Assembly: GCA_030688315.1 (NCBI GenBank)
Contig: JAUYIT010000017.1
Span: forward strand, 2,845-66,844
Origin: Candidatus Komeilibacteria bacterium
Lineage (GTDB): Bacteria > Patescibacteriota > Patescibacteriia > UBA1558 > UBA10009
Length of the DNA: 64,000 bases
Direction: 5' to 3'
The position numbers and the translations under genes are program-made. Below, one piece after another: positions 9,163-47,636 of this stretch. The notes beneath the pieces were generated by a model. It was not told the DNA's origin, searched no databases, and saw nothing but the letters and a program-made list of their open reading frames with translations. Within the stretch, counting starts at the first letter, position 1; each line of letters opens with the position of its first letter.

Positions 9163-9605
9163 TTTTTAAAATCGCTGATTTTATTTTAGATAGAATGTTC
9201 CGCAACCAGCCCACTTTAAAGCAGTTTTTTCAGTTTTCCTTGGTGGGCGGCCTTAACGCTATTGTTGATTTTTCGATCTATTTTTCTTTAACAAGAAGTA
9301 TAGATTGGTTTAAAGAAAATTACCTCGTGGCCAACGCTCTGGCTTTTTTAGCTGCCGTAACCTGTAGCTTTTTTTTAAATAACCATTGGACGTTTAAGGA
9401 ACGGGCGGTTAAGCCCTCAGCGGGTATTTATTTTAAGTATCTGGGCTTAGGACTGCTGACCTTGGCCGTGATTGAATTTTTGCTTTATCAACTGGTCAAC
9501 AATTTGGGTGTTTATGATTTGTACGCTAAAATCCTGATTTTGCTGGTCAGCGCGATTATCAATTTCAGCTTAAGCCGGCTGTGGATTTTTAAAAAAACCG
9601 ATTAA
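9159..9605 (+). CDS. gtrA: GtrA-family membrane protein (lipid-linked sugar translocation)
   Basis: 148 aa with 4 TM helices and the GtrA-like N-terminus (QFFQFSLVGGLNAIVDFSIYF). Its start overlaps the upstream stop by 4 nt (ATGA). Confidence 0.65.
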   Translation: MIFKIADFILDRMFRNQPTLKQFFQFSLVGGLNAIVDFSIYFSLTRSIDWFKENYLVANALAFLAAVTCSFFLNNHWTFKERAVKPSAGIYFKYLGLGLLTLAVIEFLLYQLVNNLGVYDLYAKILILLVSAIINFSLSRLWIFKKTD

Positions 9606-9616
9606 TTTCCCAAACC

Positions 9617-9645
9617 TTGATTATAAAGGTTGTTTGGGTTATAAT
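9617..9645 (+). promoter_or_regulatory. sigma70-like promoter: TTGATT (-35), 17-nt spacer, TATAAT (-10)
   Basis: Near-consensus hexamers with ideal spacing sit 85 nt upstream of the GT2 start at 9730. The predicted transcript would include the 9659-9682 hairpin. Confidence 0.4.
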
Positions 9646-9648
9646 TTG

Positions 9649-9693
9649 GAGCGAGGGAGGAAAGAAAGCAAGCTTTCTTTCCGAGCGAGCGAA
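9649..9693. repeat. GC-rich hairpin element flanked by GAGCGAG / CGAGCGAG motifs (copy A of a REP-like family)
   Basis: gGAGCGAGggagg-[ggaaagaaagc aa gctttctttcc]-GAGCGAGCGaa. The 11-bp stem is a perfect inverted repeat. The composition is GC-rich against an AT-rich background. Confidence 0.55.
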
Positions 9694-9729
9694 TAAATTA
9701 TACCCTGTATAATTTATTAAGTTATTTAC

Positions 9730-10449
9730 ATGAAATTAAGCGTTATTATTCCGGCTTTTAATGAAGAAGAACGCCTGCCAGACACTCTGAACCAAGTTTT
9801 TGGCTATTTGGATAAATCCGGCTTAAGCGGCGAAACGGAGGTACTGGTGATTGATGACGGTAGCATTGACAATACCGCCGCAATCGTCCGGGCACGACAG
9901 GAAAAAAATCTAAAGCTGATCGGCACCGGTCGCAACTTTGGCAAAGGAGCCGCCGTTAGAACCGGAGTACGGCAAGCGCGGGGAGAGGCCGTACTATTTT
10001 TAGATGCCGACTATTCCACCGCTTTGGAGGAACTGGAAAAATTTTTGCCAAAACTGGAGCAGGGTTATGATTTGGTGATCGGCTCGCGCGCCATTCGCGG
10101 TGCTAGGGTTTTAGTCAGCCAGAACCTGATTAAGATTTGGCTGGGCAAAACCGGCAATTTGGGCGTCCGTCTAATTTTGGGTTTAAAGGTTAATGATAGC
10201 CAGTGCGGCTTCAAGCTTTTTTCAACAAAAGCGAAAAAAATATTTCAGGAACAAACCATTAACGGCTGGGGCTTTGATTTTGAACTTTTATATTTAGCTA
10301 AAAAAAGGGGACTGATTGTATTGGAATTGCCCGTTACCTGGGTTAATAACAAGCAATCCAAAGTAAAACCCTTGGATTATTTTAAAACTTTAGGGGAGTT
10401 ATTTAAAATCAAATTTAATGACTTAAGAGGAATTTATGAAAAAAAATAA
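9730..10449 (+). CDS. GT2 polyprenyl-phosphate sugar synthase (dolichyl/undecaprenyl-phosphate mannose/glucose synthase, GtrB/DPM1-like)
   Basis: 239 aa with VIIPAFNEEERL...VIDDGSIDNT...LFLDADYS DxD motifs typical of DPM1/GtrB-type GT2. It follows gtrA. Confidence 0.75.
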   Translation: MKLSVIIPAFNEEERLPDTLNQVFGYLDKSGLSGETEVLVIDDGSIDNTAAIVRARQEKNLKLIGTGRNFGKGAAVRTGVRQARGEAVLFLDADYSTALEELEKFLPKLEQGYDLVIGSRAIRGARVLVSQNLIKIWLGKTGNLGVRLILGLKVNDSQCGFKLFSTKAKKIFQEQTINGWGFDFELLYLAKKRGLIVLELPVTWVNNKQSKVKPLDYFKTLGELFKIKFNDLRGIYEKK

Positions 10450-11507: not shown

Positions 11508-12668
11508 ATGGGTAAATACATTTTTACATCCGAATCGGTGACCGAAGGCCACCCTGATAAGGTCTGTGACCAGATTTCGGACGCTATTTTAGACGAGTTG
11601 CTAAGGCATGACCCTGAATCACGCGCCGGCATTGAGTGTATTGCTACCACGGGTTTAGTAGTTGTGGCCGGTGAAATTAGAACCAATCATTATGTTGATA
11701 TTGCCGGTATTGCCCGCCAAACCATTAAAGACATTGGTTATAACGGAGCTTCGGCCGGTTTTTCGGCGGAGGATTGCGGGGTGATGGTGGCGATTGATGA
11801 ACAGTCGGCTGATATTGCCCAGGGCGTGGATAAGGGCAAAGGCAAATACAAAGAGCAGGGCGCCGGTGATCAGGGTTTAATGTTCGGATTTGCTTGCCGT
11901 GAAACCAAAGAATTGATGCCGTTGCCGATTATGCTGGCTCATAAAATGGCTAGGCGGTTGGCGGCTGTCCGCAAAAGCGGATTATTAAAATATTTGCGCC
12001 CCGACGGTAAAACCGAAATCGCGGTGGAGTATGAAAATGGCAAGCCCCGCCGGGTTGATACGATTGTAATTGCCGCCCAGCATAACGAAACGGTTTCGGA
12101 AAAAAAAGTTGAACGCGATATTATCAATAAAGTTGTTAAACCGGTTTGCGGCAAATATCTTGATGCCAAAACCAAATTCTTTATTAATGCTACCGGCAAG
12201 TTTATTAAAGGCGGCCCGGTGGCTGATACCGGTTTGACCGGGCGTAAAATTATCGTGGATACTTACGGCGGTTATAGCGCTCACGGCGGCGGTTGTTTTA
12301 GCGGCAAGGATCCTTCAAAAGTTGACCGAAGCGCTTGCTACATGGCCCGCTACGTGGCAAAAAATATTGTGGCCGCGGGTTTAGCCGATAAGTGCGAAGT
12401 TCAGCTGGCTTACGTGATTGGGCGCGCTGAACCCGTTAGCGTGCTGGTTAAGTCATTTGGCACTGGCAAATTGCCGGACGAAAATTTGGAAAAAATAGTC
12501 AGACAGGTTTTTCCTCTAAAACCGGCCGAGATAATCAAACACTTAAAATTGAAGCGGCCGATTTACAAAAAAACCGCGGCTTACGGCCACTTTGGCCGAA
12601 CCGAACCGGAGTTTACCTGGGAAAAAACAGATCTAGTAAGCAAGTTGAAGAAGTATTTGGTTAAATAA
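11508..12668 (+). CDS. metK: S-adenosylmethionine synthetase
   Basis: 386 aa. [24 protein letters not shown] and [16 protein letters not shown] are canonical MetK motifs. Confidence 0.95.
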
Positions 12669-12670
12669 AT

Positions 12671-13585
12671 ATGTCCAAAATTTTGGTCACTGGAGGAGCC
12701 GGGTTTATCGGCTCCCATTTGGTTGACCGCCTAATCGCCAAAAATCATCAGGTGGCTGTGGTTGATAATTTATCCACCGGCAAGCTTAGGTTTGTTAACC
12801 GCCGGGCCAAATTTTACAAGGTCAGCGTGACCAGTCCCAAGTTGAAACAGGTTTTTGGCAAATTTAAACCGGAAATTGTTTTTCATTTGGCCGCCCAAAA
12901 AAGCGTGCCTTTTTCGGTTAATGATCCGCTGGCCGACGCCACTACCAACATCTGGGGTTCCTTAAAAACCATTGAGCAGTCAATTAGGGTGGGGGTAAAA
13001 AAGTTTGTGTTAATTTCCACCGGCGGGGCCATTTACGGTGCCACCAAAATCATGCCGACTCCGGAAATTGTGGCGCCTAAACCTGATTCGCCTTACGGCC
13101 TTAGCAAACTGACCGTGGAAAATTATTTGCTGAATTATTACCAACCGTTGCGCAAGCTTAATTTTGTCAGTTTGCGGCTAGCTAACGTGTTTGGCCCCAG
13201 GCAGGATCCGGACGGTGAAGCCGGCGTGGTGGCGATTTTTGTCAAAAATTTACTGGCCAATAAACAGTGTTTTATCACGGGCAACGGCAAACAAACCAGG
13301 GATTTTGTGTTTGTGGATGATGTGGTTGAGGCCTGCTTAAAATCCATCAGAGCGGGGCAGGGGATTTACAACATCGGCACGGGCAAGGAAACTTCCATCA
13401 AAGTTTTGTATCATTTAATTGCCGGCCTTATTTCCAAGCGCGAACCCAAATTCGTGCCGCCGCGGCCGGGCGATGTTTTCCGCAGTGTTTTAAAAAACGC
13501 TTTAGCCAAACGCGACCTGGGCTGGCAGGCGCAAGTTGAGCTGGTGGACGGTCTTAAAAAAACCATTAAGTATTTTAAAGCATGA
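12671..13585 (+). CDS. UDP-glucose 4-epimerase-like NAD-dependent epimerase
   Basis: 304 aa with TGGAGFIGSHLVDRL, a SPYGLSK YxxxK motif and a GalE-like short extended-SDR fold. Confidence 0.65.
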   Translation: MSKILVTGGAGFIGSHLVDRLIAKNHQVAVVDNLSTGKLRFVNRRAKFYKVSVTSPKLKQVFGKFKPEIVFHLAAQKSVPFSVNDPLADATTNIWGSLKTIEQSIRVGVKKFVLISTGGAIYGATKIMPTPEIVAPKPDSPYGLSKLTVENYLLNYYQPLRKLNFVSLRLANVFGPRQDPDGEAGVVAIFVKNLLANKQCFITGNGKQTRDFVFVDDVVEACLKSIRAGQGIYNIGTGKETSIKVLYHLIAGLISKREPKFVPPRPGDVFRSVLKNALAKRDLGWQAQVELVDGLKKTIKYFKA

Positions 13586-15132
13586 AGATTTTAGTTACCG
13601 GCGCCGCCGGTTTTATCGGTTCTCATTTGGTTGATTTTTTATTGAATCAAGGTCACGAAGTAATTGGCCTGGATAATTTTTTTAGCGGCAAAAAGGAAAA
13701 CATCGCCCACAATCTTAGCAACTCCAAATTTAAATTCATCAAACATGACGTGACCCTGCCGTTAAAGATAAAGTTCGGCCACCTCGACAGAATATACAAT
13801 CTGGCCTGCCCGGCTTCGCCCGTGCAGTACCAGTTTGATCCGGTTAAAACCCTTAACACCAGCGTTTTAGGCACGCAAAATATGCTGGAATTGGCGCGTT
13901 TAACCGGCGCTCGGTTGTTGCAGGCCTCAACTTCCGAAGTTTACGGCGATCCGTTGGAGCATCCGCAAACGGAATCTTATTGGGGCAACGTGGATCCGCT
14001 GGGCGAGCGGGCGTGTTACGATGAAGGTAAGCGCGCGGCCGAGGCCTTATGCAAGGATTATCACAAACAATATGGAGTTGACGCGCGAATAATCAGAATC
14101 TTTAACGTCTATGGGCCGCGCATGATGTTCAATGACGGCCGCGTTGTTTCCAACTTTTTATTGCAAGCTCTGCTTGATGAAGATATTACGGTTCACGGCA
14201 CGGGCGGGCAAACCAGAAGTTTTTGCTATGTGGAAGATTTTATTAAAGCAATGACCGGCTGGATGGAACACGTTACCGATTATCTGCCGGTTAACATCGG
14301 TAATCCCGAGGAGCAGTCCATGCTGACATTGGCTGAAACTATTAAGCAGGCCACCCATTCCAAAAGCCGGCTGGTTTTTATTCCTTACCAACAGCTTGCC
14401 GGCCGGCAGGGCGATGTTAAGCAAAGACGAGCTGATATTTCCAGAATAAAAAAAGAATTAAATTGGCAGCCGACCACGGTTTTTGCCGAGGGGCTTAAAA
14501 AAACCATCGCGGATTTTAAACAGCGCCTCAACAATAAACCTCACATTTTGGTTTTTGCCCCGGCCTATCTGCCGTTTAAAGGCCCGGCCGAAGAAACAGT
14601 GGCGGAAATAATTAAAAGATTGCCGGGCTATGAATTTGATATTATCACGGCCAAGCTCGATAAAAAGTTAAAGGATCAAGAGCATTACGATAACGTCCAT
14701 ATTTACCGTTTGGGAGCGGGCTCTGCCGTTGATAAATATCTGCTGCCCTTAAGAGCGGTCAGCTTGGCCAAAAAACTTCATCGCCAAAATAGTTACCAGC
14801 TTTCTTGGGCGATTATGGCTAGCTATGGCGCGGTCGCGGCTTCCTTGTTTTCTTCATTTAACAAGCGCGTGCCGTTTTTACTTAGCGTTTATGAAGGCGA
14901 TTTGACTGCTAAAATGACCAGCCGAGGCAGGTTGTTAAGCCCGGTCTATAAAATGATTTTCAGCAAGGCGCATCGCTGGCAGTTAATCGCCAAGATGAAC
15001 CAACAACAGCGCGCCTGGCTGGAAAACGAACGCCGCGTTCAGGTGGTGCAATTTGAAAAAGATTTTGATTTGCTGGCCAAAAGAACCAAGGAAATGTTTC
15101 AGGAGCTGGAAATTTTATCCGCCAGAATTTAA
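13582..15132 (+). CDS. UDP-glucuronate decarboxylase (UXS) fused in frame to an N-terminal GT4 Rossmann half-domain
   Basis: Residues 1-315 are a canonical UXS (YNLACPASPVQY, ACYDEGKRAAEAL). Residues from about 320 to 516 are homologous to the N-terminal half of the next gene (PGYEFDIITAKL vs PGYEFDLICARL; SWAIMASYGAVAAS vs VWAIMASYGGFAAL) and lack the C-terminal catalytic domain. Confidence 0.7.
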   Translation: MKILVTGAAGFIGSHLVDFLLNQGHEVIGLDNFFSGKKENIAHNLSNSKFKFIKHDVTLPLKIKFGHLDRIYNLACPASPVQYQFDPVKTLNTSVLGTQNMLELARLTGARLLQASTSEVYGDPLEHPQTESYWGNVDPLGERACYDEGKRAAEALCKDYHKQYGVDARIIRIFNVYGPRMMFNDGRVVSNFLLQALLDEDITVHGTGGQTRSFCYVEDFIKAMTGWMEHVTDYLPVNIGNPEEQSMLTLAETIKQATHSKSRLVFIPYQQLAGRQGDVKQRRADISRIKKELNWQPTTVFAEGLKKTIADFKQRLNNKPHILVFAPAYLPFKGPAEETVAEIIKRLPGYEFDIITAKLDKKLKDQEHYDNVHIYRLGAGSAVDKYLLPLRAVSLAKKLHRQNSYQLSWAIMASYGAVAASLFSSFNKRVPFLLSVYEGDLTAKMTSRGRLLSPVYKMIFSKAHRWQLIAKMNQQQRAWLENERRVQVVQFEKDFDLLAKRTKEMFQELEILSARI

Positions 15133-15144
15133 ATTTATTTTGCC

Positions 15145-16284
15145 ATGAAACGAATTTTGATTTTTGCCACTGCCTATTACCCTCACGTGGGGGGAGCGGA
15201 AGTGGCGGTTAAGGAAATTACCGACCGTTTGCCGGGTTATGAATTTGATTTGATCTGCGCCCGATTGGAAAAAAATTTGCCTCAACAGGAAAAAATCGGC
15301 CAGGTCAATGTTTTTAGAGTGGGCTGGGGCCTGCCTCAAATTGATAAAATTTATTTGGCTGTTTGCGGCTATTGGCTGGGCTTAAAACTTCAGCGCCAAA
15401 AAAAATATGATTTGGTTTGGGCGATTATGGCCAGTTATGGCGGTTTTGCCGCCTTGGCCTTTAAACTTAAAACAGGGGTCAAATATTTACTGACTTTACA
15501 GGAGGGCGATTTTAATTTAAAAACCAAGCGCAAAATTTGGCTGGTCAAAAAAAAATTCGCCAACATTTTCAGCCAAGCCGACGGCTTGCAAGCCATCAGC
15601 AATTATTTATTGAACTGGGGTACAGCCATGGGTTTTAAGGGCCTAGCCGAAGTGGTGCCCAACGGCGTGGACGTAAAAAATTTTACCAAAGTTTATGAGC
15701 AGTCGGAATTAAAAAAAGTTAGAGATAGTTGGGGTTTTGATCGGTCAGCGATCATTTTAGTCAGCGCCTCCCGCTTGGTATTAAAAAACGGCCTAGCTGA
15801 CCTGATTAAGGCCCTGCCGTTGCTTCCGGAAAATTTTTGTCTGGTGTTGATCGGTGAAGGCCGGTTAGAAAAAAATTTACGTCAATTGGCCGATAATTTA
15901 GGATTATCTTCACGAATTTATTTTGCCGGTTATCATGATCATCAGGAACTGCCGCGCTTGCTGGCCGCCGCCGATATATTTATTAGGCCATCGTTAAGCG
16001 AGGGCTTGGGCAACGCATTTTTGGAAGCGATGGCTACGCGTTTGCCCACCATCGGAACTTTGGTTGGCGGCATCCCGGATTTTTTGACGGATGGCCAAAC
16101 CGGATTGGTTTGCGAACCGGGTAATCCGCAAAGCATCAGCCAAGCGATTGTTAAAGCGTCCAAATTGTCTGTTCAGGAAAAACAAGCGCTTCATCAAAAC
16201 GCCATGGCGTTGATTGAAAAAAAATACAATTGGGAGTATATTGCTGGTAGAATGGATGCTATTTTTAAGGGTTTAACCGCTTAA
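15145..16284 (+). CDS. GT4 glycosyltransferase
   Basis: 379 aa. The C-terminal EGLGNAFLEAMATRLPTIGTLVGG E-x7-E motif marks a GT4/GT-B retaining fold. Confidence 0.8.
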   Translation: MKRILIFATAYYPHVGGAEVAVKEITDRLPGYEFDLICARLEKNLPQQEKIGQVNVFRVGWGLPQIDKIYLAVCGYWLGLKLQRQKKYDLVWAIMASYGGFAALAFKLKTGVKYLLTLQEGDFNLKTKRKIWLVKKKFANIFSQADGLQAISNYLLNWGTAMGFKGLAEVVPNGVDVKNFTKVYEQSELKKVRDSWGFDRSAIILVSASRLVLKNGLADLIKALPLLPENFCLVLIGEGRLEKNLRQLADNLGLSSRIYFAGYHDHQELPRLLAAADIFIRPSLSEGLGNAFLEAMATRLPTIGTLVGGIPDFLTDGQTGLVCEPGNPQSISQAIVKASKLSVQEKQALHQNAMALIEKKYNWEYIAGRMDAIFKGLTA

Positions 16285-16298
16285 TTTTAATTTATATT

Positions 16299-17588
16299 AT
16301 GAAGATTACTATTGTTGGCACGGGTTATGTGGGTTTGGTTTCGGCCGTTGGTTTGGCCGAACTGGGGCACCGGGTTTTTTGCGTTGATACCGATCCTCAA
16401 AAAATTGAAATTTTAAAAAGCGGTCGGGCAACCTTTTATGAACCGGGTTTGGATAAGCTTTTAAAAAAGAATTTAGCCAATCGTCGTTTAAGCTTTACCG
16501 TTAGTTTAGCGCAAGTTATTGATCAGTCTGAAATTATTTTTATCTGCGTGGGCACGCCGCCCCAGCCCGACGGCAGTGCCGATTTAACTTACGTTAAACA
16601 GGTGGCAGCCAGCATTCAAACTTTATCCAAGCAGGGCAAAATAGTGGTTACCAAAAGCACCGTGCCCATCGGCACCGGCGCCATGCTGGAGCAGATTTTA
16701 AATAAAAAACCCGGCCGGGTTTTTGAAGCCGTTTCCTGTCCGGAATTTTTGCGTGAAGGCCAGGCCGTTTATGATTTTTTTCATCCGGATCGAATCGTAG
16801 TGGGCGCCGATAAGCAGTCAGTCGGCTTTAAGGTAATAAATTTATTTAGCGCGGTTAAAACCCATAAAATGGTCACCAGTCGTGAAACCGCTGAACTCAT
16901 CAAATACGCGGCCAACGCCTTTTTGGCCACCAAGATTTCCTTTATCAACGAAATCAGCAATGTCTGCGAAAAAACCGGCGCCGACGTGGAAGAAGTAGCC
17001 AAAGGTATGGGTCTGGATAAACGTATTAATCCATATTTTTTAAAAGCGGGTATCGGCTATGGCGGCAGTTGTTTTCCTAAAGACGTGCGAGCTCTCCGTC
17101 AGTTATCCGGCGGTAATGGTTACAACTTCCGTTTGTTAAAGGCGGTTATTGAAGTAAATAACAAACAGCGTCAGTTGTTTTTTGAAAAAATCAAAAAAGT
17201 TTTGGGTTCGCTGGAAGGCAAAAAAATCGGGGTTTTGGGCTTGGCGTTTAAAGGCAACACCGATGACGTACGGGAATCGGCCGCCGTTGATTTGATTAAA
17301 AAGCTGGTTAAAGCCAAAGCCAAGGTCAGCTGTTTTGATCCGCAAGCCGTGGCTAACGCCCGTTTGGTGTTAAACGGCCGGATCCGTTATTGCGCTAACG
17401 CTTATGAAACCATGGAGCAGGCCGACGCCCTAATTATCGCCACTGAATGGCCGCAGTTTGCCAAATTGGATTTTAAAAAAGTCAAAAAATTATTACGCCA
17501 GCCGATTATTTTTGATGGCAAGAACCTATTAAATCATCAACTAATTAAAAAAGCCGGCTTTTCATATTATTCCGTCGGCCGCAGCTAA
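16299..17588 (+). CDS. ugd: UDP-glucose 6-dehydrogenase
   Basis: 429 aa with GTGYVGLVSAVGLAELGH N-terminal NAD motif and the catalytic GGSCFPKDV cysteine motif. Confidence 0.9.
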   Translation: MKITIVGTGYVGLVSAVGLAELGHRVFCVDTDPQKIEILKSGRATFYEPGLDKLLKKNLANRRLSFTVSLAQVIDQSEIIFICVGTPPQPDGSADLTYVKQVAASIQTLSKQGKIVVTKSTVPIGTGAMLEQILNKKPGRVFEAVSCPEFLREGQAVYDFFHPDRIVVGADKQSVGFKVINLFSAVKTHKMVTSRETAELIKYAANAFLATKISFINEISNVCEKTGADVEEVAKGMGLDKRINPYFLKAGIGYGGSCFPKDVRALRQLSGGNGYNFRLLKAVIEVNNKQRQLFFEKIKKVLGSLEGKKIGVLGLAFKGNTDDVRESAAVDLIKKLVKAKAKVSCFDPQAVANARLVLNGRIRYCANAYETMEQADALIIATEWPQFAKLDFKKVKKLLRQPIIFDGKNLLNHQLIKKAGFSYYSVGRS

Positions 17589-17592
17589 AAAT

Positions 17593-17967
17593 ATGAATAA
17601 TCAAACAATGTCAAAATTTGAGGATATTATTATTCCTGGCCCCGTTAAGGCAGAAACGGAGCATTTGCCTGTGCTGGAAATAACCCCGGCCATGCGTGAG
17701 ACGTTTACCGATCTTCGAAATAAATTTTATGAGATGAGTAGCGGATACCAACTGCAAAATGATTTAAGTTTTAGCGGACGATGTTCTGATTTTAAACATA
17801 AGATATACGGCGAGTTCGGCATGGACGCTATGACCAATTGCTATTTGAGCCATATTTTTGGCAGTACCGTGCCCGAAGAACTGCTTAACCGTTATGATTT
17901 TGAAGGCGGATGTTCAGTTGAATCCTTTATCAATCAGGAATACGAGAGGTTTAAAAACAAGTTATAA
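17593..17967 (+). CDS. hypothetical soluble protein with four Cys
   Basis: 124 aa with no TM helix, tightly packed between ugd and a GT2 gene. No recognisable family. Confidence 0.35.
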   Translation: MNNQTMSKFEDIIIPGPVKAETEHLPVLEITPAMRETFTDLRNKFYEMSSGYQLQNDLSFSGRCSDFKHKIYGEFGMDAMTNCYLSHIFGSTVPEELLNRYDFEGGCSVESFINQEYERFKNKL

Positions 17968-18629
17968 TGAATAATGTTTTTATTATCATTCCGTGTTATA
18001 ACGAAGCCGAACATTTGGCTAAAGTGATTGAATCGGTTAAACCGTACGGCCGGGTAGTAGTGGTTGACGACGGTTCAACTGACAATTCTTTTCAAATTGC
18101 CGTAAGTAGCGGCACCCTGGTTTTAAAACATCTGGTCAACCGCGGCATGGGCGCGGCTTTGGAAACAGGGGACAGGCTTGCCCGTAGCCAGGGTGCCGAG
18201 ATTGTGGTTCATTTTGACGCCGACGGCCAGCATGTGGCCGAAGAAATCCCACTGTTGATTCAGCCGATAGTCAATAACGAGGCAGACGCGGTTTTGGGTT
18301 CCAGATTTTTAAAGCCCACCAGCGCCATACCGTTTTTTAAAAAGCATTTTATTTTAAAACCCGCTGTGTTTTTTCAGAATTCCATGTTGGGCGTTAAACT
18401 GACCGACGCGCACAACGGTTTTAGGGCCTTATCCTGTCATGCTTTGGAAAAAATCAGGATTACCCAAGACGGCATGGCCCATGCTACCGAAATTATCGAG
18501 CAGATTAAAACCAATAATTTAACTTATCAGGAAGTTCCGGTAACCGTTATTTACCACGAATTCGGCCAAGGATTTTTATCGGGCTTGAAGATTTTAAAGG
18601 ATTTGATTTTTGGTAAAATAAATAAATAA
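17967..18629 (+). CDS. GT2 glycosyltransferase (small, DPM1/DPG-synthase-like)
   Basis: 220 aa with IIIPCYNEAEHL...VVVVDDGSTDNS...HFDADGQH motifs. Confidence 0.75.
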   Translation: MNNVFIIIPCYNEAEHLAKVIESVKPYGRVVVVDDGSTDNSFQIAVSSGTLVLKHLVNRGMGAALETGDRLARSQGAEIVVHFDADGQHVAEEIPLLIQPIVNNEADAVLGSRFLKPTSAIPFFKKHFILKPAVFFQNSMLGVKLTDAHNGFRALSCHALEKIRITQDGMAHATEIIEQIKTNNLTYQEVPVTVIYHEFGQGFLSGLKILKDLIFGKINK

Positions 18630-18631
18630 CT

Positions 18632-18988
18632 ATGGTTTATCTGCCTTTACAAATTATTGTTACCATCTTTGTGGTGTTAGTTGTGTTTCGGCTGACCAAA
18701 AAATACAAAGACAATATTTTAAAAACTTCCGAACTGGTGGGCTGGCTAATGATTTGGACCGTTGTTTTAGTCGTCTTTTGGCTCCCTCAAACCACTTCTT
18801 ATCTGGCAACTTTACTGGGCATCGGCCGTGGCGTGGATTTAGCCGTTTATTCGGCCGTACTGATGATTTTTTACCTCATTTTCCGGCTGTATCTTAAACT
18901 GGATAAACAGCAGAAAGAAATTACCAAAATCGTCCGCCATCTGGCGTTATCGGAAACAAACGAGGACAAGGAACAAAAGTCAAATTAA
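18632..18988 (+). CDS. DUF2304-like small membrane protein (GT2-associated)
   Basis: 118 aa with 3-4 TM helices and a conserved-looking LGIGRGVDLAVY segment. This family commonly follows small GT2 genes. Confidence 0.45.
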   Translation: MVYLPLQIIVTIFVVLVVFRLTKKYKDNILKTSELVGWLMIWTVVLVVFWLPQTTSYLATLLGIGRGVDLAVYSAVLMIFYLIFRLYLKLDKQQKEITKIVRHLALSETNEDKEQKSN

Positions 18989-19018
18989 AAAATAGATTAT
19001 TTGAATAATCCTTGAATA

Positions 19019-20116
19019 ATGAATAACATAATGCCCGCCAAAGGCGGGTCGGCCTCTGGCCGAAAAAAAGTTTGCATCATCATTGTCAACTATAACGGCC
19101 AAAAATACCTCCCCGATTTGTTAGGGAGTATTTTTAGTAATCAGCCAAATAGCGTTTTACAGGAGGTGGTATTGGTTGATAACGCTTCGGTTGATAATTC
19201 CCTTAACTGGCTTAAGCAAAATTATCCGCAAGTTACCGTACTGGCGCAAACGGAAAATTACGGCTTTGCCAAAGGCAACAACATCGGCATAAATTGGGCC
19301 ATGGCCAATGGTTGTGATTACGTTTTTTTGCTTAATAGCGATACGCTTATGGAAGCCGGTTGTTTGGATAAACTGGTCAGCGCTATTGAACAGGATGATA
19401 AAATTGCCGTTATTCAGCCAAAAATATTGTTATGGCCGTTAACCGATTTAATCAACAGCTTAGGAAATGTTATTCATTATTTGGGCTTTGGCTATACTTA
19501 CGGCCATAAAACTCCTACTATGAACCATCAGTTAGGCCGCTCGATTTACCAAGTCAACTATTGTTCCGGTGCCGCGTGTTTGATTAAACTGGAAGCGCTG
19601 GCCAGAACTGGCTTATTTAACGAAGAATTTTTTATGTATCATGAAGATCTGGATTTGGGCTGGCGTTTTTCGCTCATGGGCTATAAAAACATGATTGAGC
19701 CGCGGGCCGTGGTTTACCATAAATACGAATTCAGCCGCAGCATTCAAAAGTATTATTATATGGAACGGAACCGCTGGCTGGTCATGTTGCAAAATTACAA
19801 ATTATTGACCCTCTTGCTGATTTTGCCGGCATTGCTTATGATGGAAGCAGGGCTGGTCTTGCTCTCCATCTTAGGCGGCTGGCATCAGGAAAAATTCAGG
19901 GTTTATTTATATTTTTTACGAGTTTCAAGTTGGAAAAAACTTTGGCTAACCCGAAGGCAAATTCAAAAACAGCGGGTGGTTAGTGATCGGGCGGCGGTTA
20001 AAAAATTCAGCGGTGTAATTGAGCATCAGGACAGCCCGGCCCGCGGGGTGGATAAAATTGCCAACATTTTTTTTAACGCCTATTGGCAGATTATTAGATT
20101 ATTGATTATTTGGTAA
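19019..20116 (+). CDS. GT2 glycosyltransferase with C-terminal membrane region
   Basis: 365 aa with CIIIVNYNGQKYL...VVLVDNASVDNS...LLNSDT DxD motifs and C-terminal TM helices. Confidence 0.75.
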   Translation: MNNIMPAKGGSASGRKKVCIIIVNYNGQKYLPDLLGSIFSNQPNSVLQEVVLVDNASVDNSLNWLKQNYPQVTVLAQTENYGFAKGNNIGINWAMANGCDYVFLLNSDTLMEAGCLDKLVSAIEQDDKIAVIQPKILLWPLTDLINSLGNVIHYLGFGYTYGHKTPTMNHQLGRSIYQVNYCSGAACLIKLEALARTGLFNEEFFMYHEDLDLGWRFSLMGYKNMIEPRAVVYHKYEFSRSIQKYYYMERNRWLVMLQNYKLLTLLLILPALLMMEAGLVLLSILGGWHQEKFRVYLYFLRVSSWKKLWLTRRQIQKQRVVSDRAAVKKFSGVIEHQDSPARGVDKIANIFFNAYWQIIRLLIIW

Positions 20117-20117
20117 A

Positions 20118-21269
20118 ATGACTGAACCAAAAATAAAAATCGCTCAAGTGGTTAACACCTTTCCGCCCTATCGCGGCGGCATGGGCAATGTTTGTTATCA
20201 TTTGGCCGATCAGCTAAGCCGCTTGGGTTACGAAGTCACGGTTTTTACCCCGCGTTATCACTGGGACGAAGCAGATTTAGAAAGTTTTTTTAATATCCAC
20301 AAGCTGACGCCGCAATTTCAGTTTGGCAACTCGGCCATAGTTTTGCAGGCATTTTGGCGACTGCTAAAATTCCAGATCGTGCATTTTCATTATCCGTTTA
20401 TGGGCGCGGCTTTGGCGGTGATGCTGGCTAAGCTAGTTCGCGGCAAAAAAATGAAATTAATCGTTCATTACCATATGGACCTGGTGGGTCAGGGCTGGAA
20501 AAGCTGGGTTTACAAAATTTATAACGCGATTTTTTTAAAAAGTATGCTGGCCCGGGCCGATCAGGTGATTGCTACTTCCGAAGATTATTTGCGCAAGTCC
20601 TTGATTTATCCGCATTATTTAAAAAATCTGGACAAATTCACCATAGTTCCTAATGGCGTGGACATCAATTATTTTCAGCCAGCGCCAAAAAATCAGGGTT
20701 TGGTGGATCAGTATGGGCTAGCCGGTAAAAAAACAATTTTGTTTGTGGGGGCTTTGGATGCCCAGCATTACTTTAAGGGCGTTAACTATTTAATCAAGGC
20801 CGTGGAATTGCTCAAGCGGACGGACGTTAAATTGGTGATTGTGGGCGACGGAGATTTGCGGCCGATCTACGAAGACATGGCCGAATCGTACGGCCTGGCG
20901 GAGCGGGTAATTTTTACCGGTTATCTGCCTGATGCCCAGCTGGTTGATCATTATAATTTATGCGATATCTTTGTGTTGCCGTCTATTGATAAAAGCGAGG
21001 CCTTTGGCATGGTGCTGATTGAGGCCATGGCCTGCGCCAAGCCGGTGCTGGCTTCCAGTTTGCCGGGCGTGCGGGAAGTTGTGGAAGCCAAGGTTAACGG
21101 CCGCATTTTTAAGCCCAAAGATGTTAATAGTTTATCGTTACAGCTGACCTTTATGCTTAATGATACTGCCTTATGCCGAGAGTACGGTTTTAATGGCCGC
21201 GCCAAGGTGGAACAGCAATACAGCTGGGATAAAATTACCCAGAATTTGTTAAAAATATATTTTCCATGA
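20118..21269 (+). CDS. GT4 glycosyltransferase
   Basis: 383 aa with GGMGNVCYHLADQL N-terminus and an EAFGMVLIEAMACAKPVLAS E-x7-E motif. Confidence 0.8.
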   Translation: MTEPKIKIAQVVNTFPPYRGGMGNVCYHLADQLSRLGYEVTVFTPRYHWDEADLESFFNIHKLTPQFQFGNSAIVLQAFWRLLKFQIVHFHYPFMGAALAVMLAKLVRGKKMKLIVHYHMDLVGQGWKSWVYKIYNAIFLKSMLARADQVIATSEDYLRKSLIYPHYLKNLDKFTIVPNGVDINYFQPAPKNQGLVDQYGLAGKKTILFVGALDAQHYFKGVNYLIKAVELLKRTDVKLVIVGDGDLRPIYEDMAESYGLAERVIFTGYLPDAQLVDHYNLCDIFVLPSIDKSEAFGMVLIEAMACAKPVLASSLPGVREVVEAKVNGRIFKPKDVNSLSLQLTFMLNDTALCREYGFNGRAKVEQQYSWDKITQNLLKIYFP

Positions 21270-25477: not shown

Positions 25478-25506
25478 TTGAAAAATAACCTATAAATTGG
25501 TATAAT
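25478..25506 (+). promoter_or_regulatory. sigma70-like promoter: TTGAAA (-35), 17-nt spacer, TATAAT (-10)
   Basis: Near-consensus hexamers upstream of the GT-C gene. The predicted leader contains hairpin element B. Confidence 0.45.
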
Positions 25507-25530: not shown

Positions 25531-25579
25531 GAGCGAGTGAAGCAAAAAAGTAAACTTTTTTGCTTCCGAGCCGAGGAGC
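25531..25579. repeat. GC-rich hairpin element flanked by GAGCGAG / CGAGCCGAG motifs (copy B of a REP-like family)
   Basis: GAGCGAGt-[gaagcaaaaaag taaa cttttttgcttc]-CGAGCCGAGGAGC. The 12-bp stem is perfect. Confidence 0.55.
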
Positions 25580-28735: not shown

Positions 28736-28750
28736 TCGACTAAACCGTCA

Positions 28751-28786
28751 TTGCGAGGAGTCGAGCTTAGCTCGACGACGAAGCAA
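28751..28786. repeat. GC-rich interrupted hairpin (variant of the GAGCGAGG element family)
   Basis: ttgcGAGGAG-[tcgagc tta gctcga]-cgacgaagcaa. Outer ttgc/gcaa also pair. It lies in the 5' region of the 28800 gene. Confidence 0.4.
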
Positions 28787-28799
28787 TCTCGATGAATTT

Positions 28800-31038: not shown

Positions 31039-32295
31039 ATGAAATACGACGTCAAGAATGTCAAACTAGCTCCAGCGGGAAAGAAACGAATCCTCTGGGC
31101 CGAAAAGCAGATGGATGTGTTGCGCCAAATCTCGGCTAGGTTTGCCAAACAAAAGCCCTTAAAAGGCGTAAAAATGGCCGCCTGTTTGCATGTAACCGCC
31201 GAAACAGCTAATTTGATGAGAACGCTTAAAGCCGGCGGTGCCAGCGTTGTTTTATGTGCTTCCAACCCTTTATCCACGCAGGATGAAGTAGCGGCTTCGC
31301 TGGTTAAAGATTTTGGCATTCCGGTTTTTGCCAGAAATAATATTGATAGAAAAGGTTATTATCGTCATTTAAATTCAGCTTTGGACACTAAGCCGAATTT
31401 GTCTATGGACGATGGCGCTGATTTAGTTTCATTACTTCATACCAAAAGAAAAGATCTGGTTAAGCATATTTTTGGCGGAACCGAAGAAACCACTACCGGC
31501 GTGATTAGATTGAAAGCGTTGGCGGAACAAAAAAAATTATTGTATCCCATTGTGGCGGTTAATGACGCGCAAACCAAGCACTTTTTTGACAATCGTTACG
31601 GTACCGGCCAATCAACCTTGGACGGCATTATCCGCGCCACCAACATTTTGCTGGCCGGAAAAACCGTGGTGGTGGCCGGTTATGGCTGGTGCGGCCGTGG
31701 GTTCGCGCTTAAGGCCAAAGCTATGGGCGCCAAGGTGATTGTGACCGAAGTTGAGGCGGTTAAGGCCTTAGAAGCAGTCATGGACGGTTTTGAGGTTAAA
31801 ACCATGTTGCAGGCGGCTTCCGTCGGCGATATCTTTTGCACTTTAACCGGCGATATTCACGTGATCCGCAAAGAGCATTTTGCCAAAATGAAAAACAACG
31901 CCGTGGTTTGCAACTCCGGCCACTTTGACGTGGAACTGGATTTGGTCGGCCTTAAAAAAATCAGCAAAAAGGTGGAAACGGTCAGGCCGTTTGTGCAGGC
32001 CTATACTTTAAAAAACGGCCGTGCCGTTAATGTGTTAGCCGAAGGCCGTTTGATTAACCTGGCTTCCGCCGAAGGGCACCCGGCTTCGGTTATGGATATG
32101 AGTTTTGCCAACCAATCTTTGGCGGCCGAATTTGTAGTTAAAAATTACAAGCATTTGGAAAAAAGAGTTTACGATGTGACGCAAAAAACGGATGATTACA
32201 TTGCCACGGCCAAGCTTAAGGCCATGGGCGTCAGCATTGATAAGTTGACCGCTGAACAGCAAAAGTATTTGACCAGTTGGGAAATGGGAACGTAG
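31039..32295 (+). CDS. ahcY: adenosylhomocysteinase (S-adenosyl-L-homocysteine hydrolase)
   Basis: 418 aa with NAD-binding [10 protein letters not shown] and conserved AhcY core motifs. Confidence 0.95.
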
Positions 32296-32301
32296 TTTGA
32301 A

Positions 32302-32412
32302 CTGCTCGGTCGGGCAAGAAAACTTTTTGCCCTCGTCTCCGGCCTTCGCCGCGACAGGCGGCTCGCCCGGTATTTTTCACTCGGTTCAAAAAGTTTTCTT
32401 GCCCTTCCTCGC
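32302..32412. repeat. composite palindromic element in the rfbB leader (18-bp perfect inverted arms around a GC-rich core); reverse-orientation member of the GAGCGAGG family
   Basis: The 18-bp arms gggcaagaaaactttttg (32312-32329) and caaaaagttttcttgccc (32387-32404) are perfect inverted repeats flanking a GC-rich core with an inner gccgc gacag gcggc stem. On the minus strand the flanks read GCGAGGAAGG...CGACCGAGCAG. Confidence 0.5.
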
Positions 32413-32427
32413 ATTAATTAACAAGTT

Positions 32428-33429
32428 ATGAATTTACTAGTAACCGGCGGGGCCGGTTTTGCCGGCTCCAACTTTATCAGGTATATTTTGCGGAAGTATC
32501 CCAACTACCGGATTTTTAATTTGGATAAACTGACCTATGCCGGCAATTTGGACAATCTGAAAGATATTGAAGGCAACGCCAACTATAAGTTCATTAAAGG
32601 CGACATTGTTGATCAGCGCATGGTGTTTAAAATCTGCCGCAACAATAAAATCGACGCCATTCTTAACTACGCCGCCGAAACCCACGTGGACCGATCCATT
32701 TTGGATCCCGCTGATTTTGTTAAAACCGACGTCATCGGCACTTATAACATTCTGGAAGCGGTCAAGGAATTCAAGCTTCAAAAATTCGTGCAAATTTCTA
32801 CCGATGAAGTTTACGGCAGTTTAACCAAGGGCCAGTTTACAGAAGAATCGCCATTTTTACCCAATTCACCTTATAGCGCTTCCAAAGCCGGCGCCGATTT
32901 GCTGTGCCGGTCATATGTTAAAACCTATAAACTGCCGGTGGTTGTTACGCATAGCTGTAATTTTTACGGGCCCTATCAGTATCCCGAAAAAATGATTCCC
33001 TTGTTTGTTACCAACCTGATGGAAGGCAAAAAGGTGCCGTTGTACGGCAAAGGCGAAAACACTCGCGAATGGATTTACGTATTGGATCATTGCCGGGCCA
33101 TTGATTTTTTACTGCATAAGGGCGTCAACGGCGAGGTCTACAATATCGGCACGGGCGTGGAAAAAAAGAATATACAAATCACTCAGATATTTTTGGCTGA
33201 ACTGGGTTTGGATAAAAAAATGATTGAATTCGTCAAGGATCGGCCGGGCCATGACTGGCGCTATGCCGTTAATTCAAATAAATTGAAAAAATTGGGCTGG
33301 AGTCCTGAATATGATTTTGACGACGCAATGAGGGAAACAATCCGCTGGTACCAAAAAAACGAGTGGTGGTGGAAAAAACTTAAGTCCGGCGAGTATCTTA
33401 AGTATTACAAAAAACAGTACGGTCTTTAA
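32428..33429 (+). CDS. rfbB: dTDP-glucose 4,6-dehydratase
   Basis: 333 aa with TGGAGFAGSNF, the YAAETHVDRSI and SPYSASKAGADLL catalytic motifs. Confidence 0.92.
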   Translation: MNLLVTGGAGFAGSNFIRYILRKYPNYRIFNLDKLTYAGNLDNLKDIEGNANYKFIKGDIVDQRMVFKICRNNKIDAILNYAAETHVDRSILDPADFVKTDVIGTYNILEAVKEFKLQKFVQISTDEVYGSLTKGQFTEESPFLPNSPYSASKAGADLLCRSYVKTYKLPVVVTHSCNFYGPYQYPEKMIPLFVTNLMEGKKVPLYGKGENTREWIYVLDHCRAIDFLLHKGVNGEVYNIGTGVEKKNIQITQIFLAELGLDKKMIEFVKDRPGHDWRYAVNSNKLKKLGWSPEYDFDDAMRETIRWYQKNEWWWKKLKSGEYLKYYKKQYGL

Positions 33430-41957: not shown

Positions 41958-42031
41958 TCGGGGATCGTCTAATGGTAGGACAGCGGGTTTTGGTCCCGTC
42001 AATTGGGGTTCGACTCCCTGTCCCCGAGCCA
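41958..42031 (+). tRNA. tRNA-Gln (anticodon UUG), CCA encoded
   Basis: 74 nt folded manually: 7-bp acceptor stem (TCGGGGA/TCCCCGA), D-arm GTCT-AATGGTA-GGAC, anticodon stem GCGGG/CCCGT with loop TTTTGGT (UUG), T-arm TGGGG-TTCGACT-CCCTG, discriminator G and 3' CCA. Confidence 0.85.
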
Positions 42032-42073
42032 ATAAAAAAACACCAACAGCTGTTGGCGTTTTTTTATTGGCTC
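42026..42073. terminator. 48-bp near-perfect palindrome overlapping the tRNA 3' end; bidirectional terminator-like
   Basis: gagccaataaaaaaacaccaacag | ctgttggcgtttttttattggctc. There is one mismatch in the 24-bp arms, with a central stem ccaacag/ctgttgg followed by a T-run. Confidence 0.6.
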
Positions 42074-43293: not shown

Positions 43294-43409
43294 GGCGCGG
43301 CCTGACGCATTGTTAAAATTATTAATAGATTTTAAAACGTAGAGACACAAAATTTTGTGTCTCTACGTTGTTTTAATTACCGCCTATGTGTAAAGCGTCA
43401 GGCCGCGCC
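43294..43409. repeat. composite palindromic element: 15-bp GC-rich inverted repeats (GGCGCGGCCTGACGC / GCGTCAGGCCGCGCC) flanking a 17-bp-stem AT-rich hairpin that acts as a bidirectional terminator
   Basis: Outer arms are at 43294-43308 and 43395-43409. The inner perfect hairpin aacgtagagacacaaaa/ttttgtgtctctacgtt is at 43336-43369 and is followed by gttttaatt. It lies between the convergent 42249 and yggT genes. Confidence 0.55.
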
Positions 43410-46112: not shown

Positions 46113-47636
46113 ATGCCGATCAAGTTTTCTCGCAAAACATCAGTCAACGGTTATATTAAAGCGCTCTGGATTTTAGGCGCGCTGTTAATAATTGTTTTAG
46201 TTGTGCAAAGCGCCGGTTTGCCTAAAAAATACGGCAGTTTGTTTTTGGAACAGGTTTTTAAACAACCTCTTAAAATCGCGGCCACTTACGCCCAGCTGGT
46301 AGATTCGTTTGATGAAAATTTAACCGTGATTAAATGGCTCGGGGGGTTTGACAAGGAACGGGTTTATCTGGTGTTTTTTCAAAACACCGCGGAATTAAGG
46401 CCCACCGGCGGCTTTTGGGGCAGTTACGGCCTGTTAAAAGTTAAAGATGGCGCCATCACTTCATTGGTCATCGACGATATTTATCATTTGGACGATAAAA
46501 CCGTTAAGGCCCTGCCCCAAAAGCCGCCTCAGCCCCTGGCCGAGCATTTACAGGTCAAACAGTGGTTTATGCGCGATTTAAACTGGTCGCCGGATTTTGC
46601 TCAAACAGCTCGCTTGGCTTTGGCTTTTTACCGTTACTTGGACCCGCGGGGGAGTGTAATTCAAGAATCGCCTCAATCACAACCGTTGCAAGTAGATGGC
46701 GTGATTGCCGTTAACCCCAGTTTTATTTCCGAGCTGTTAAAAAAATACGGTTCGTTGGAAATTGATAATCAGCTTTATGAAGCCGATAATTTTTTGGCTA
46801 AAACCCAGTTTCAAACCAGCATCGGTTTTAGGGAAAAAAGGGTCAGCGATTGGGAGCGCAAGGAATTTTTACAGGAGTTGGCTGATAAGTTAATCGCTAA
46901 AATCGCGGCCACAAGCGGCGGTTTTAGCCTTGATGACTGGAAGGACTGGCAGCATTTTTGGCTGATGAATACGGCTCAAAAAAATCTTTTGCTTTACAGC
47001 GCGGAGCCGAGCATTCAAAGCTTTTTGGTAGCCAAAAATTGGGCGGGCGCTTTAAGGCAAAATCCGACGGGGGATTACCTGATGGTGGCGGACGCCAATC
47101 TGGCCAGCTTAAAAACCGACCCGGAAATTGAACGAAAAATCGTTCATCAAGTGGAGGTCGGCGATATCGGCCATTTGGTGACCACGCAAATTACCTATGT
47201 CCACCACGGACAGTTTGACTGGCGCACCACTCGGTATCGCACTTATGTCAGAGTTTACGTGCCTTTGGGCGTTGAACTTAAATCGGCTACGGTTAAAAAA
47301 GCTAATCAGGATGTTGTTGTTACCGACTCGATTAAGGTCAGTCAGGAACTTAATAAAACCGTGTTTGGCTATTTTTTATCAACCGAACCGCAAAGCGAAC
47401 AGACATTAATTTTGACCTACGTTTTACCTCAAATGGGTCCGGACAATTATTCTTTGCTGGTTCAAAAACAACCCGGAGCGGGCAGGCAAACAATTAGTTT
47501 GGAATACCAGGGTCCTCAAGCTGTGAGCCAGAACAATTGGCCGGGCCAGTATCACTTGAATCAAAATAAATTTATCGGCGACCCCGTGGACTTTGTACAG
47601 GATTTGGAGTTCAACCTGAATTTAGCGGACCGATAA
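46113..47636 (+). CDS. DUF4012-like membrane-anchored protein
   Basis: 507 aa with an N-terminal TM helix. The ELRPTGGFWGSYGLLKV segment resembles the conserved DUF4012 motif. Confidence 0.45.
   Translation: MPIKFSRKTSVNGYIKALWILGALLIIVLVVQSAGLPKKYGSLFLEQVFKQPLKIAATYAQLVDSFDENLTVIKWLGGFDKERVYLVFFQNTAELRPTGGFWGSYGLLKVKDGAITSLVIDDIYHLDDKTVKALPQKPPQPLAEHLQVKQWFMRDLNWSPDFAQTARLALAFYRYLDPRGSVIQESPQSQPLQVDGVIAVNPSFISELLKKYGSLEIDNQLYEADNFLAKTQFQTSIGFREKRVSDWERKEFLQELADKLIAKIAATSGGFSLDDWKDWQHFWLMNTAQKNLLLYSAEPSIQSFLVAKNWAGALRQNPTGDYLMVADANLASLKTDPEIERKIVHQVEVGDIGHLVTTQITYVHHGQFDWRTTRYRTYVRVYVPLGVELKSATVKKANQDVVVTDSIKVSQELNKTVFGYFLSTEPQSEQTLILTYVLPQMGPDNYSLLVQKQPGAGRQTISLEYQGPQAVSQNNWPGQYHLNQNKFIGDPVDFVQDLEFNLNLADR

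Follow-up and report, generated by a model that had tools for sequence, protein, structure and literature searches.

We analysed a 64,000-nucleotide stretch of contig JAUYIT010000017.1 from a Candidatus Komeilibacteria bacterium (the window hereafter), a member of the Candidate Phyla Radiation (CPR). The window carries a large surface-glycan locus between 1.6 and 35 kb, with genes for sugar transferases, epimerases, Wzy-like proteins, GtrA, PMT_2 and S-adenosylmethionine (SAM) synthetase, and type IV pilus genes at 58-64 kb. Within the glycan locus, the AdoHcyase gene ahcY (31039-32295) is followed by rfbB (32428-33429), rfbD, a small open reading frame (ORF) and rfbA. The rfbB product shows 100% identity to a protein from a metagenome-assembled genome of Candidatus Komeilibacteria. 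The 132-nt spacer between the ahcY stop at 32295 and the rfbB start at 32428 is filled by a palindromic element at 32302-32412, one of four related hairpins in the window, which we call copy C and whose origin is the subject of this study.

Copy C is built of two perfect 18-bp arms, GGGCAAGAAAACTTTTTG at 32312-32329 and its exact reverse complement at 32387-32404, set 57 nt apart; with its flanks, the inverted repeat spans 27 nt at 85% complementarity (32303-32329 / 32387-32413). The palindrome is far beyond chance, given that the longest perfect stems in 30 shuffles of the window reached 10-13 bp against the 18 bp seen here (loop bound up to about 120 nt). The core between the arms (32330-32386) is 67% G+C (38/57), compared with 43.6% across the window, and contains its own 5-bp stem, GCCGC (32348-32352) / GCGGC (32358-32362), enclosed by CCGG (32340-32343) / CCGG (32367-32370). 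The arms, the GC-rich core and its small stem are thus as given in the preliminary description of this element, and the minus-strand flanks quoted there were both found exactly (GCGAGGAAGG at 32403-32412 and CGACCGAGCAG at 32302-32312). Folding of 32302-32412 in the two orientations gave energies far below those of shuffled sequences, the minus strand being the stronger both as RNA (-58.9 kcal/mol, z -7.2, versus -48.9 kcal/mol, z -5.2, for the plus strand) and as DNA (-33.3 kcal/mol, z -6.5, versus -27.3 kcal/mol, z -4.3). The minus strand is the GA strand of copy C and reads, from 5' to 3':

32405-32413, minus strand: 5' flank, TGCGAGGAA, with the conserved word GCGAG
32387-32404, minus strand: 5' arm, GGGCAAGAAAACTTTTTG, the right arm on the plus strand
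32330-32386, minus strand: core, 57 nt, 67% G+C, unconserved between lineages
32312-32329, minus strand: 3' arm, CAAAAAGTTTTCTTGCCC, the left arm on the plus strand
32302-32311, minus strand: 3' flank, GACCGAGCAG, with the conserved word CGAGC

When 5'-GCGAG is set antiparallel to CGAGC-3', the pairs are G-C, C-G, G.A, A.G and G-C, so that the stem is extended through tandem G.A mismatches, and in the fold prediction the 5' flank of copy C pairs with 32302-32311 as UGC / GA.GA / GG / AA.GA. The same module recurs on the same strand inside the core, which is predicted to fold as CC-GA-GU / AC-GA-GG, then CCGG..CCGG, then C-GA-GCCGC-cuguc-GCGGC-GAA-G. CGAG occurs five times on the minus strand of copy C and not once on the plus strand, where 0.19 occurrences per strand are expected. 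When 5'-CGAG-3' pairs with itself, as in r(GGCGAGCC)2, it provides the tandem context for sheared G.A pairs, in RNA as well as in DNA, and d(GCGAAGC) forms a mini-hairpin. A kink-turn shares the tandem GA context and was rejected because copy C, copy A and the orthologous element of locus L091 have symmetric internal loops, 2x2 (or 2x3), and lack a 3-nt bulge.

We searched the window with a strict descriptor, GCGAG/CGAGC (or CGAG...CGAG) around a stem, which returned only three hairpins, copies A, B and C. When applied to about 1.3 Mb of unrelated DNA, which included loci of AdoHcyase homologues from other phyla (at most 70% identity), it gave only a few weak, GC-rich matches with long loops. 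Copy D was spotted by eye in a listing of the intergenic spacers and fits a separate descriptor, GTC-P1-GA; it represents the canonical unit of what we call the D type. The three further copies are:

9650-9691, plus strand: copy A, AGCGAG-GGA-GGAAAGAAAG-caag-CTTTCTTTCC-GAG-CGAGCG, between a GtrA-like gene (9159-9605) and a GT2 gene (9730-10449)
25532-25575, plus strand: copy B, AGCGAG-T-GAAGCAAAAAAGT-aa-ACTTTTTTGCTTC-CGAGC-CGAGG, upstream of the PMT_2 gene
28746-28790, plus strand: copy D, canonical unit, CGTC-ATTGC-GA-G-GA-GTCGAGC-tta-GCTCGAC-GA-C-GAA-GCAAT-CTC, between two hypothetical genes and just upstream of an rfbC-like gene

The flanks of copy A (AGCGAG-hairpin-GAGCGAGCG) and copy B (AGCGAGT-hairpin-CGAGC), both on the plus strand, match those of copy C on the minus strand, which bears out the earlier claim that the family occurs in both orientations. 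Sequence similarity among these three copies extends to their arms (GGAAAGAAAGC, AGCAAAAAAGT and GGCAAGAAAAC; 9/11 and 7/11 identities). All four copies are intergenic and lie within the glycan locus, between 9.6 and 32.4 kb, and none was found at 36-64 kb. Copies A, B and D are on the plus strand and copy C is on the minus strand, so that D and C face each other over 28.8-32.3 kb, a segment with a hypothetical gene, the rfbC-like gene and the HIT, PfkB and AdoHcyase genes. Strong sigma-70-like promoter sites precede two of the copies: TTGATT-17-TATAAT at 9617-9645, with copy A starting 5 nt downstream, and TTGAAA-17-TATAAT with a TG extension at 25478-25506, with copy B 26 nt downstream; both sites are followed by TATAATTTG. 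A perfect 12-bp palindrome, AATAAATTATAC-cct-GTATAATTTATT (9692-9718), directly follows copy A and precedes the start codon of GT2.

Syntenic loci, found through rfbB homologues and referred to by L numbers, show how the copy C site varies among relatives. In three of them (L083, L086 and L091, rfbB 80-83% identical) the arms (GGCAAGAAAAAttt) are kept with compensatory changes and the 5' arm is conserved as GG(G)CAAGAAAAAttt. The cores of these three, 23, 57 and 45 nt long, are unrelated to that of copy C and to each other, and the G.A module is present in such unrelated cores too (CAC-GA-G-uacu-C-GA-GUG in L083; GUC-GA-GG / CC-GA-GAC in L091). Pooled over five spacers of the C lineage, CGAG occurs 19 times on the minus strand and twice on the plus strand, and the minus strand is the better folder in every lineage, as RNA and as DNA alike. 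The closest lineage (L082/L089/L095, rfbB 87%) carries different nested GC-rich hairpins at the C site together with a one-arm remnant, and in lineages with rfbB at or below 78% identity the ahcY-rfbB spacers are 13-113 nt long, AT-rich and devoid of the element.

The other sites are similarly variable. In L083 a second C-type copy, L083b, lies in the rfbB-rfbD spacer, which in the window measures 2 nt; copy B is absent upstream of PMT_2 in L086, L091 and L093; and the copy D site is empty in L086 and L091, while in L089 the copy D unit is inverted and expanded. Such filled and empty sites, together with the inversion and with nesting of units, amount to the behaviour of a dispersed repeat and not of a conserved cis-regulatory RNA. 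The preliminary description had judged the family closer to REP or MITE elements (repetitive extragenic palindromes and miniature inverted-repeat transposable elements) than to a riboregulator; the likeness to REP elements stands on these grounds, and the strict MITE reading falls for reasons given below.

Several observations on the relatives are worth recording beside these. The rfbB-rfbD spacer of L082 (3655-3846, equivalent to about 11000-11190 of L095) holds a 190-nt palindrome nest of -90.8 kcal/mol on the plus strand, in which a D-type unit lies within a C-type arm with its GA strand in sense orientation. Two short-read (Logan) contigs of the L086 lineage, L087 and L088, start within the palindrome, 48 nt ahead of the rfbB gene, and the palindrome thus appears to break assemblies. 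In L097 (1-208), a direct duplication of approximately 100 nt upstream of rfbB contains GCTTCGGCGAGGCGAGAAGGG and may be either a tandem repeat or an artefact of assembly.

The D type of unit reaches well beyond this clade. The flanks of copy D (gtCATTGCGAGGAG ... GACGAAGCAATCtc) recur in the control loci of Planctomycetales, Anaerolineales, Nitrospirota and Aminicenantes, and D-type units were found in CPR loci as well. A permissive structural descriptor gave 576 matches versus 379 in shuffled sequence, barely above background, and was therefore replaced by a stricter one, GTC-P1-(T)GA-G...C-GA(A)-P1', which gave 49 matches versus 17-27 in shuffles, all of the GTCAT-headed ones being clean units. 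The P1 stem covaries across the units (ATTGC/GCAAT, ATTTC/GAAAT, ATGC/GCAT, ACCC/GGGT). They are arranged as inverted doublets (L010) or tandem arrays (L032, L077), and L074 holds both a minimal form, GTCATTGC-GA-GC-GAA-GC-GAA-GCAATCTC, and a near-classic copy of the repeat known as NTS (ccGTCATTCCGGGCTTGACCCGGAATCcag).

At some of these loci the units accompany a nuclease gene. A small ORF in L032 has direct units upstream and an inverted unit at its stop codon, and its homologues belong to the GIY-YIG family (PF01541; core of about 95 aa), are found mostly on contigs of about 1 kb, and in many cases end in a protein tail that is a translated D-type unit. In L185, a 48-nt inverted repeat of 100% complementarity, beginning TGTCATCCCGAGCGAGG, brackets the GIY-YIG ORF. 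In L175, from a CPR bacterium (Buchananbacteria), two GTCAT-headed units with CGAG/CGAG in their stems form an inverted doublet on the 3' side of the GIY-YIG gene. We note separately that L032, an Anaerolineales contig, carries at least 10 GA-type units next to recA, with truncated heads in tandem, at 12950-13740 and 15550-20400, and that its GIY-YIG gene (13352-13020, minus strand) is surrounded by about 1.3 kb of non-coding DNA rich in repeats. A GIY-YIG ORF in L104 (19068-19301) was set aside as evidence, being a different, distant and tRNA-adjacent gene; a stretch of about 45 nt (gggaagaaaagaaaagtatttt.gataaatatcgttcggggatcg) occurs in duplicate, once on either side of it (18985-19400), and the arrangement looks like an insertion in or next to the tRNA.

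A repeat system with these properties has been described. Ssn proteins are single-domain GIY-YIG nucleases (cd10448) that bind hairpin repeats as single-stranded DNA (ssDNA) only, and one strand only (Chenal et al. 2025, Nat Commun 16:2388; PMC11893778). Their targets are NTS (CGTCATTCCCGCGMAVGCGGGAATCYRG; the dRS3 repeat of Neisseria), NTSvar and the general Ssn-related motifs (SRM), semi-palindromes of 20-50 nt that are oriented by a CGTCAT head and an ATC tail; NTS is written as CGTCAT TCCCGCG..GCGGGA ATC YRG and NTSvar as CGTCAT ACTCGGG..CCCGAGT ATC (PMC11893778). Cleavage falls a few nucleotides upstream of the repeat, cutting depends on the 3 nt that precede the palindrome and binding on the C that follows it, and the enzyme is indifferent to the loop, which tolerates extension (PMC11893778). 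SRM are intergenic, occur in both orientations and rarely inside genes, and cluster by surface-related genes; the repeats flank ssnA in the manner of insertion-sequence ends, and in Neisseria they modulate natural transformation (PMC11893778).

Copy D reads CGTCAT TGCGAGGAG..GACGAAGCA ATC TC, its head and tail being identical to those of NTS/SRM. The SRM head, (C)GTC(A/T)(C/T) immediately before the palindrome, is present in copy D (CCGTCATTGCGAGG) and in L083b (TGTCATTAGCGAGCGAGG), and the tail with its C after the palindrome is present in copy D (..GAAGCAAT-C-TC). Copy C itself is a strand-directional hairpin semi-palindrome, as seen from its 18-bp stem, the CGAG count of 5 versus 0 and the difference between its DNA folds, and the four window copies are, like SRM, multi-copy, intergenic, in both orientations and near surface genes. 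The link between A, B and C on the one side and D on the other is made by the shared words GCGAGG and CGAGC, by the nesting in L082 (GAGCGAGGGCAAGAA-TGTCATTGCGAGGAG) and by the bridging copy L083b (TGTCATTAGCGAGCGAGGGCAAGAAA), in which an SRM head is joined to a C-type arm. Judging from these features, the family is most likely either part of, or sister to, the Ssn-related motifs (SRM; NTS/dRS3). The properties of the Ssn/NTS system, namely strand specificity, a free loop, rarity in genes and clustering by surface genes, would explain the oddities of copy C, and its length of 111 bp, above the reported 20-50 nt, follows from its expanded loop.

For copy C we therefore favour, by a modest margin over doubt, an origin as an Ssn/SRM-type ssDNA hairpin repeat with strand specificity, whose loop later accreted G.A modules and whose nuclease-critical positions have since been lost. 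According to this proposal, an SRM-type unit would have been inserted into the ahcY-rfbB spacer in an ancestor of this clade, its loop would have accumulated further G.A modules on the same strand to give the GC-rich core, and the positions needed for nuclease action would then have decayed. We infer that copy C descended from such a unit and that it is, or was, recognised as minus-strand ssDNA by a cognate Ssn nuclease; today it is probably an inactive relic, because the GTC head and the tail C are gone.

Several results weigh against this interpretation. In place of a GTC head the GA strand of copy C has TTAATTAAT-GCGAGG (AAT-GCGAGG), and its end reads ..CGAGCAGT-T-C, with T and not C after GCAGT. 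The published SRM search string, HGTCWYN(0-2)YYVSBRHN(0-5)WNVSBRGN(0-2)RNCYNB, finds an NTS control and has no match in the window, neither in C nor in D; it also misses the GA-type units of L074, L055 and L032, and the unit of L175 fits only with the loop limit raised to 60. Neither the window nor about 100 kb of sequence from close relatives contains an Ssn-like or GIY-YIG ORF, and searches of NCBIfam and PDB with the flanked GIY-YIG genes name no subfamily, so that their place in the Ssn clade (cd10448) is putative. A, B and C are traced back to D-type units through short similarities and a single bridging copy. Finally, A and B stand just past strong promoter-like sites in sense orientation, which would also suit an RNA element of the 5' untranslated region. 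For the missing head and tail C, the unmatched string, the missing Ssn-like ORF, the putative nature of the cd10448 assignment and the short A/B/C-to-D links, we file copy C as a degenerate variant or relative of SRM and not as a proven member.

The folding energies would also agree with a function in RNA, on either strand. On the plus strand, copy C could be a selected cis-acting structure of the mRNA, an intercistronic hairpin that uncouples ahcY from rfbB by acting as a barrier to 3' exonucleases, an RNase III site or a pause/attenuator, as REP elements do in E. coli operons; REP hairpins within operons stabilise upstream mRNA. We found no sigma-70-like promoter on either strand of the ahcY-rfbB spacer, and in relatives without the element the two genes nearly abut, with spacers of only 13-75 nt, which suggests an operon; the spacer is thus probably co-transcribed, and the palindrome would then form an mRNA hairpin of about -49 kcal/mol. 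Its position is kept in four lineages, with the compensatory arm changes described above. However, the conserved non-Watson-Crick features are all antisense, the mRNA strand showing C.U/U.C mismatches instead; the core is unconserved, the structure in L082 differs, distant relatives do without the element, and the family lies in both orientations relative to genes. We consider selection for such a structure unlikely. This is separate from the effect that the hairpin, whatever its origin, may have on the stability or processing of the ahcY-rfbB mRNA, where it could slow 3' exonucleases or offer a site to a double-strand-specific RNase. The same data lend no support to two roles named in the preliminary description. 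The element is intercistronic, with no promoter-like site in the spacer, and is hence not an rfbB leader; and a terminator or insulator is not borne out, there being no terminator-like site on either strand of 32100-32700 and no T/U tract on either strand after the stem (TTCCTCGC on plus, GACCGAGC on minus), while the short spacers of element-less relatives suggest an operon.

On the minus strand, the element could encode a small structured or cis-antisense RNA whose tandem-G.A modules serve as protein-binding sites, with A, B and D carrying the same motif in 5' untranslated regions or between cistrons. This would agree with the better folding of the minus strand in all lineages, with the strand-specific CGAG/CGAG modules that recur in non-homologous cores, with a U.G wobble in L091 that fits the minus strand only, and with the promoter-like sites before A and B. 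Nevertheless, no promoter- or terminator-like site serves the minus strand and no minus-strand promoter is consistent across orthologues, the element is antisense within a probable operon, and the orthologous D unit is inverted in L089. Rfam 15 recognises only a tRNA in the whole window; at E at or below 10 the copy C region gives only generic long-hairpin miRNA matches, far below threshold, and copy D gives nothing better than E of about 1. The inverted ends of GIY-YIG gene cassettes consist of identical modules, and the Ssn enzyme studied shows no RNA binding (PMC11893778). An antisense RNA is accordingly the less probable of the two RNA functions, and a riboregulator reading of copy C is not supported. 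A classical MITE, that is, a non-autonomous derivative of a DDE transposon with 18-bp terminal inverted repeats, would account for perfect inverted arms between genes and for presence and absence among relatives. Yet no target-site duplication abuts the arms (left ..CGGTC, right TTCCT..), a search tolerating 3 mismatches finds no further copy of the copy C arm in the window, A, B and C have different arms, and what is conserved is located beyond the arms and does not make up a mutual inverted repeat. Of the 60 window ORFs scanned with Pfam, none gave a transposase match and 18 have no family at all (5 further ORFs were covered by precomputed annotation only). A MITE in the strict sense is therefore highly improbable and was rejected.

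Three more specific candidates were tried and dropped. A polysaccharide-operon leader (JUMPstart/ops or a LoaP-type hairpin) disagrees with the antisense orientation of C and with the lack of conservation of B upstream of PMT_2 in relatives; a TIGR-Tas stem-loop guide unit disagrees with the single unit, its fully structured core and the missing box C/D spacing; and a hammerhead-like core (GCGAGGA versus CUGANGA; UGA..GAA) leaves C3/U4 unsatisfied and has no Rfam match.

Returning to the Ssn/SRM interpretation, a bolder version of it deserves mention as a tentative, rather doubtful idea. The GCGAG...CGAGC hairpins might be an undescribed functional subclass of SRM with a recognition stem of sheared G.A pairs, growing by nesting in the same polarity and present in at least five phyla including CPR. 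A co-evolved Ssn might then restrict recombination of incoming ssDNA at the glycan genes bracketed by D and C (28.8-32.3 kb) in a naturally competent, host-dependent bacterium, as NTS does in Neisseria.

The description of Ssn nucleases and their hairpin repeats dates only from 2025, covers mainly Proteobacteria and offers a single degenerate motif (PMC11893778). Both the phylum and the stem chemistry seen here are beyond the coverage of that motif. Our results point to a sizeable G.A-mismatch class of such repeats, missed by the published motif, in Chloroflexota, Planctomycetota, Nitrospirota, Aminicenantes and CPR, and to the ability of this class to expand into nested palindromes of 100-200 bp within operons. 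If this is true, the target repertoire of a family of programmable ssDNA nucleases would be wider, and very common spurious small ORFs and broken contigs in metagenome assemblies would find an explanation. Repeats for the control of transformation would then stand beside the surface-glycan genes of an epibiotic CPR bacterium, and annotators would be warned against calling GC-rich intergenic hairpins riboswitches, small RNAs or terminators.

Other features of the window were noted in passing. SAM synthetase (11508-12668) and AdoHcyase (31039-32295) are both embedded in the glycan locus together with methyltransferase genes, which suggests methylated sugars or local recycling of SAM. Outside the glycan locus, a nested palindrome at 43294-43409, with 15-bp GC-rich outer arms (GGCGCGGCCTGACGC) around a 16-bp AT-rich hairpin (43336-43369), occupies the gap between the DUF5667 and YGGT genes, which converge on it, and its right arm extends into the 3' end of YGGT. 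A perfect 17-bp inverted repeat, GGCGGCTTTTGGGGCAG ... CTGCCCCAAAAGCCGCC, 88 nt apart (46407-46528), is inside a DUF4012 ORF (46113-47636), and a spacerless 24-nt palindrome of 96% complementarity (42026-42073) begins in the final bases of a tRNA gene (41958-42028).

Compared with known systems, the closest structural parallel to the flanks is the sheared tandem G.A motif, since the GCGAG/CGAGC flanks and the internal modules have exactly its context and L074 and L082 contain GCGAAGC; that motif, however, is a structural building block and not a genetic element. Literature searches with the repeat sequences and for REP elements in CPR returned no match. REP, BIME (bacterial interspersed mosaic element) and REPIN (REP doublet) systems, with their RAYT (REP-associated tyrosine transposase) genes, resemble the present family in being intergenic imperfect palindromes with a conserved single-stranded head, both orientations and one-strand action, and in having inverted doublets (as in L010 and L175), clusters (L032) and a cognate gene between inverted units. 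They differ in that no GTAG stands beside any copy here, no scanned window ORF matches Y1_Tnp, the associated gene is a GIY-YIG nuclease and not a Y1 transposase, and the copy number appears low (4 in 64 kb). From the Ssn/SRM system the present repeats differ in the base of the stem, which has tandem G.A mismatches (CGAG/CGAG, GA/GAA) and not a Watson-Crick palindrome, and copy C in particular differs in its 18-bp A/T-rich stem, its nested 57-nt core and its lack of a GTC head and tail C; the host belongs to CPR, and the window contains no Ssn gene. With that system they nevertheless share the oriented head and tail, exact in copy D, the strand direction, the intergenic position in both orientations near surface genes, an extendable loop and, in L185, L032 and L175, a nuclease gene bracketed by inverted units.

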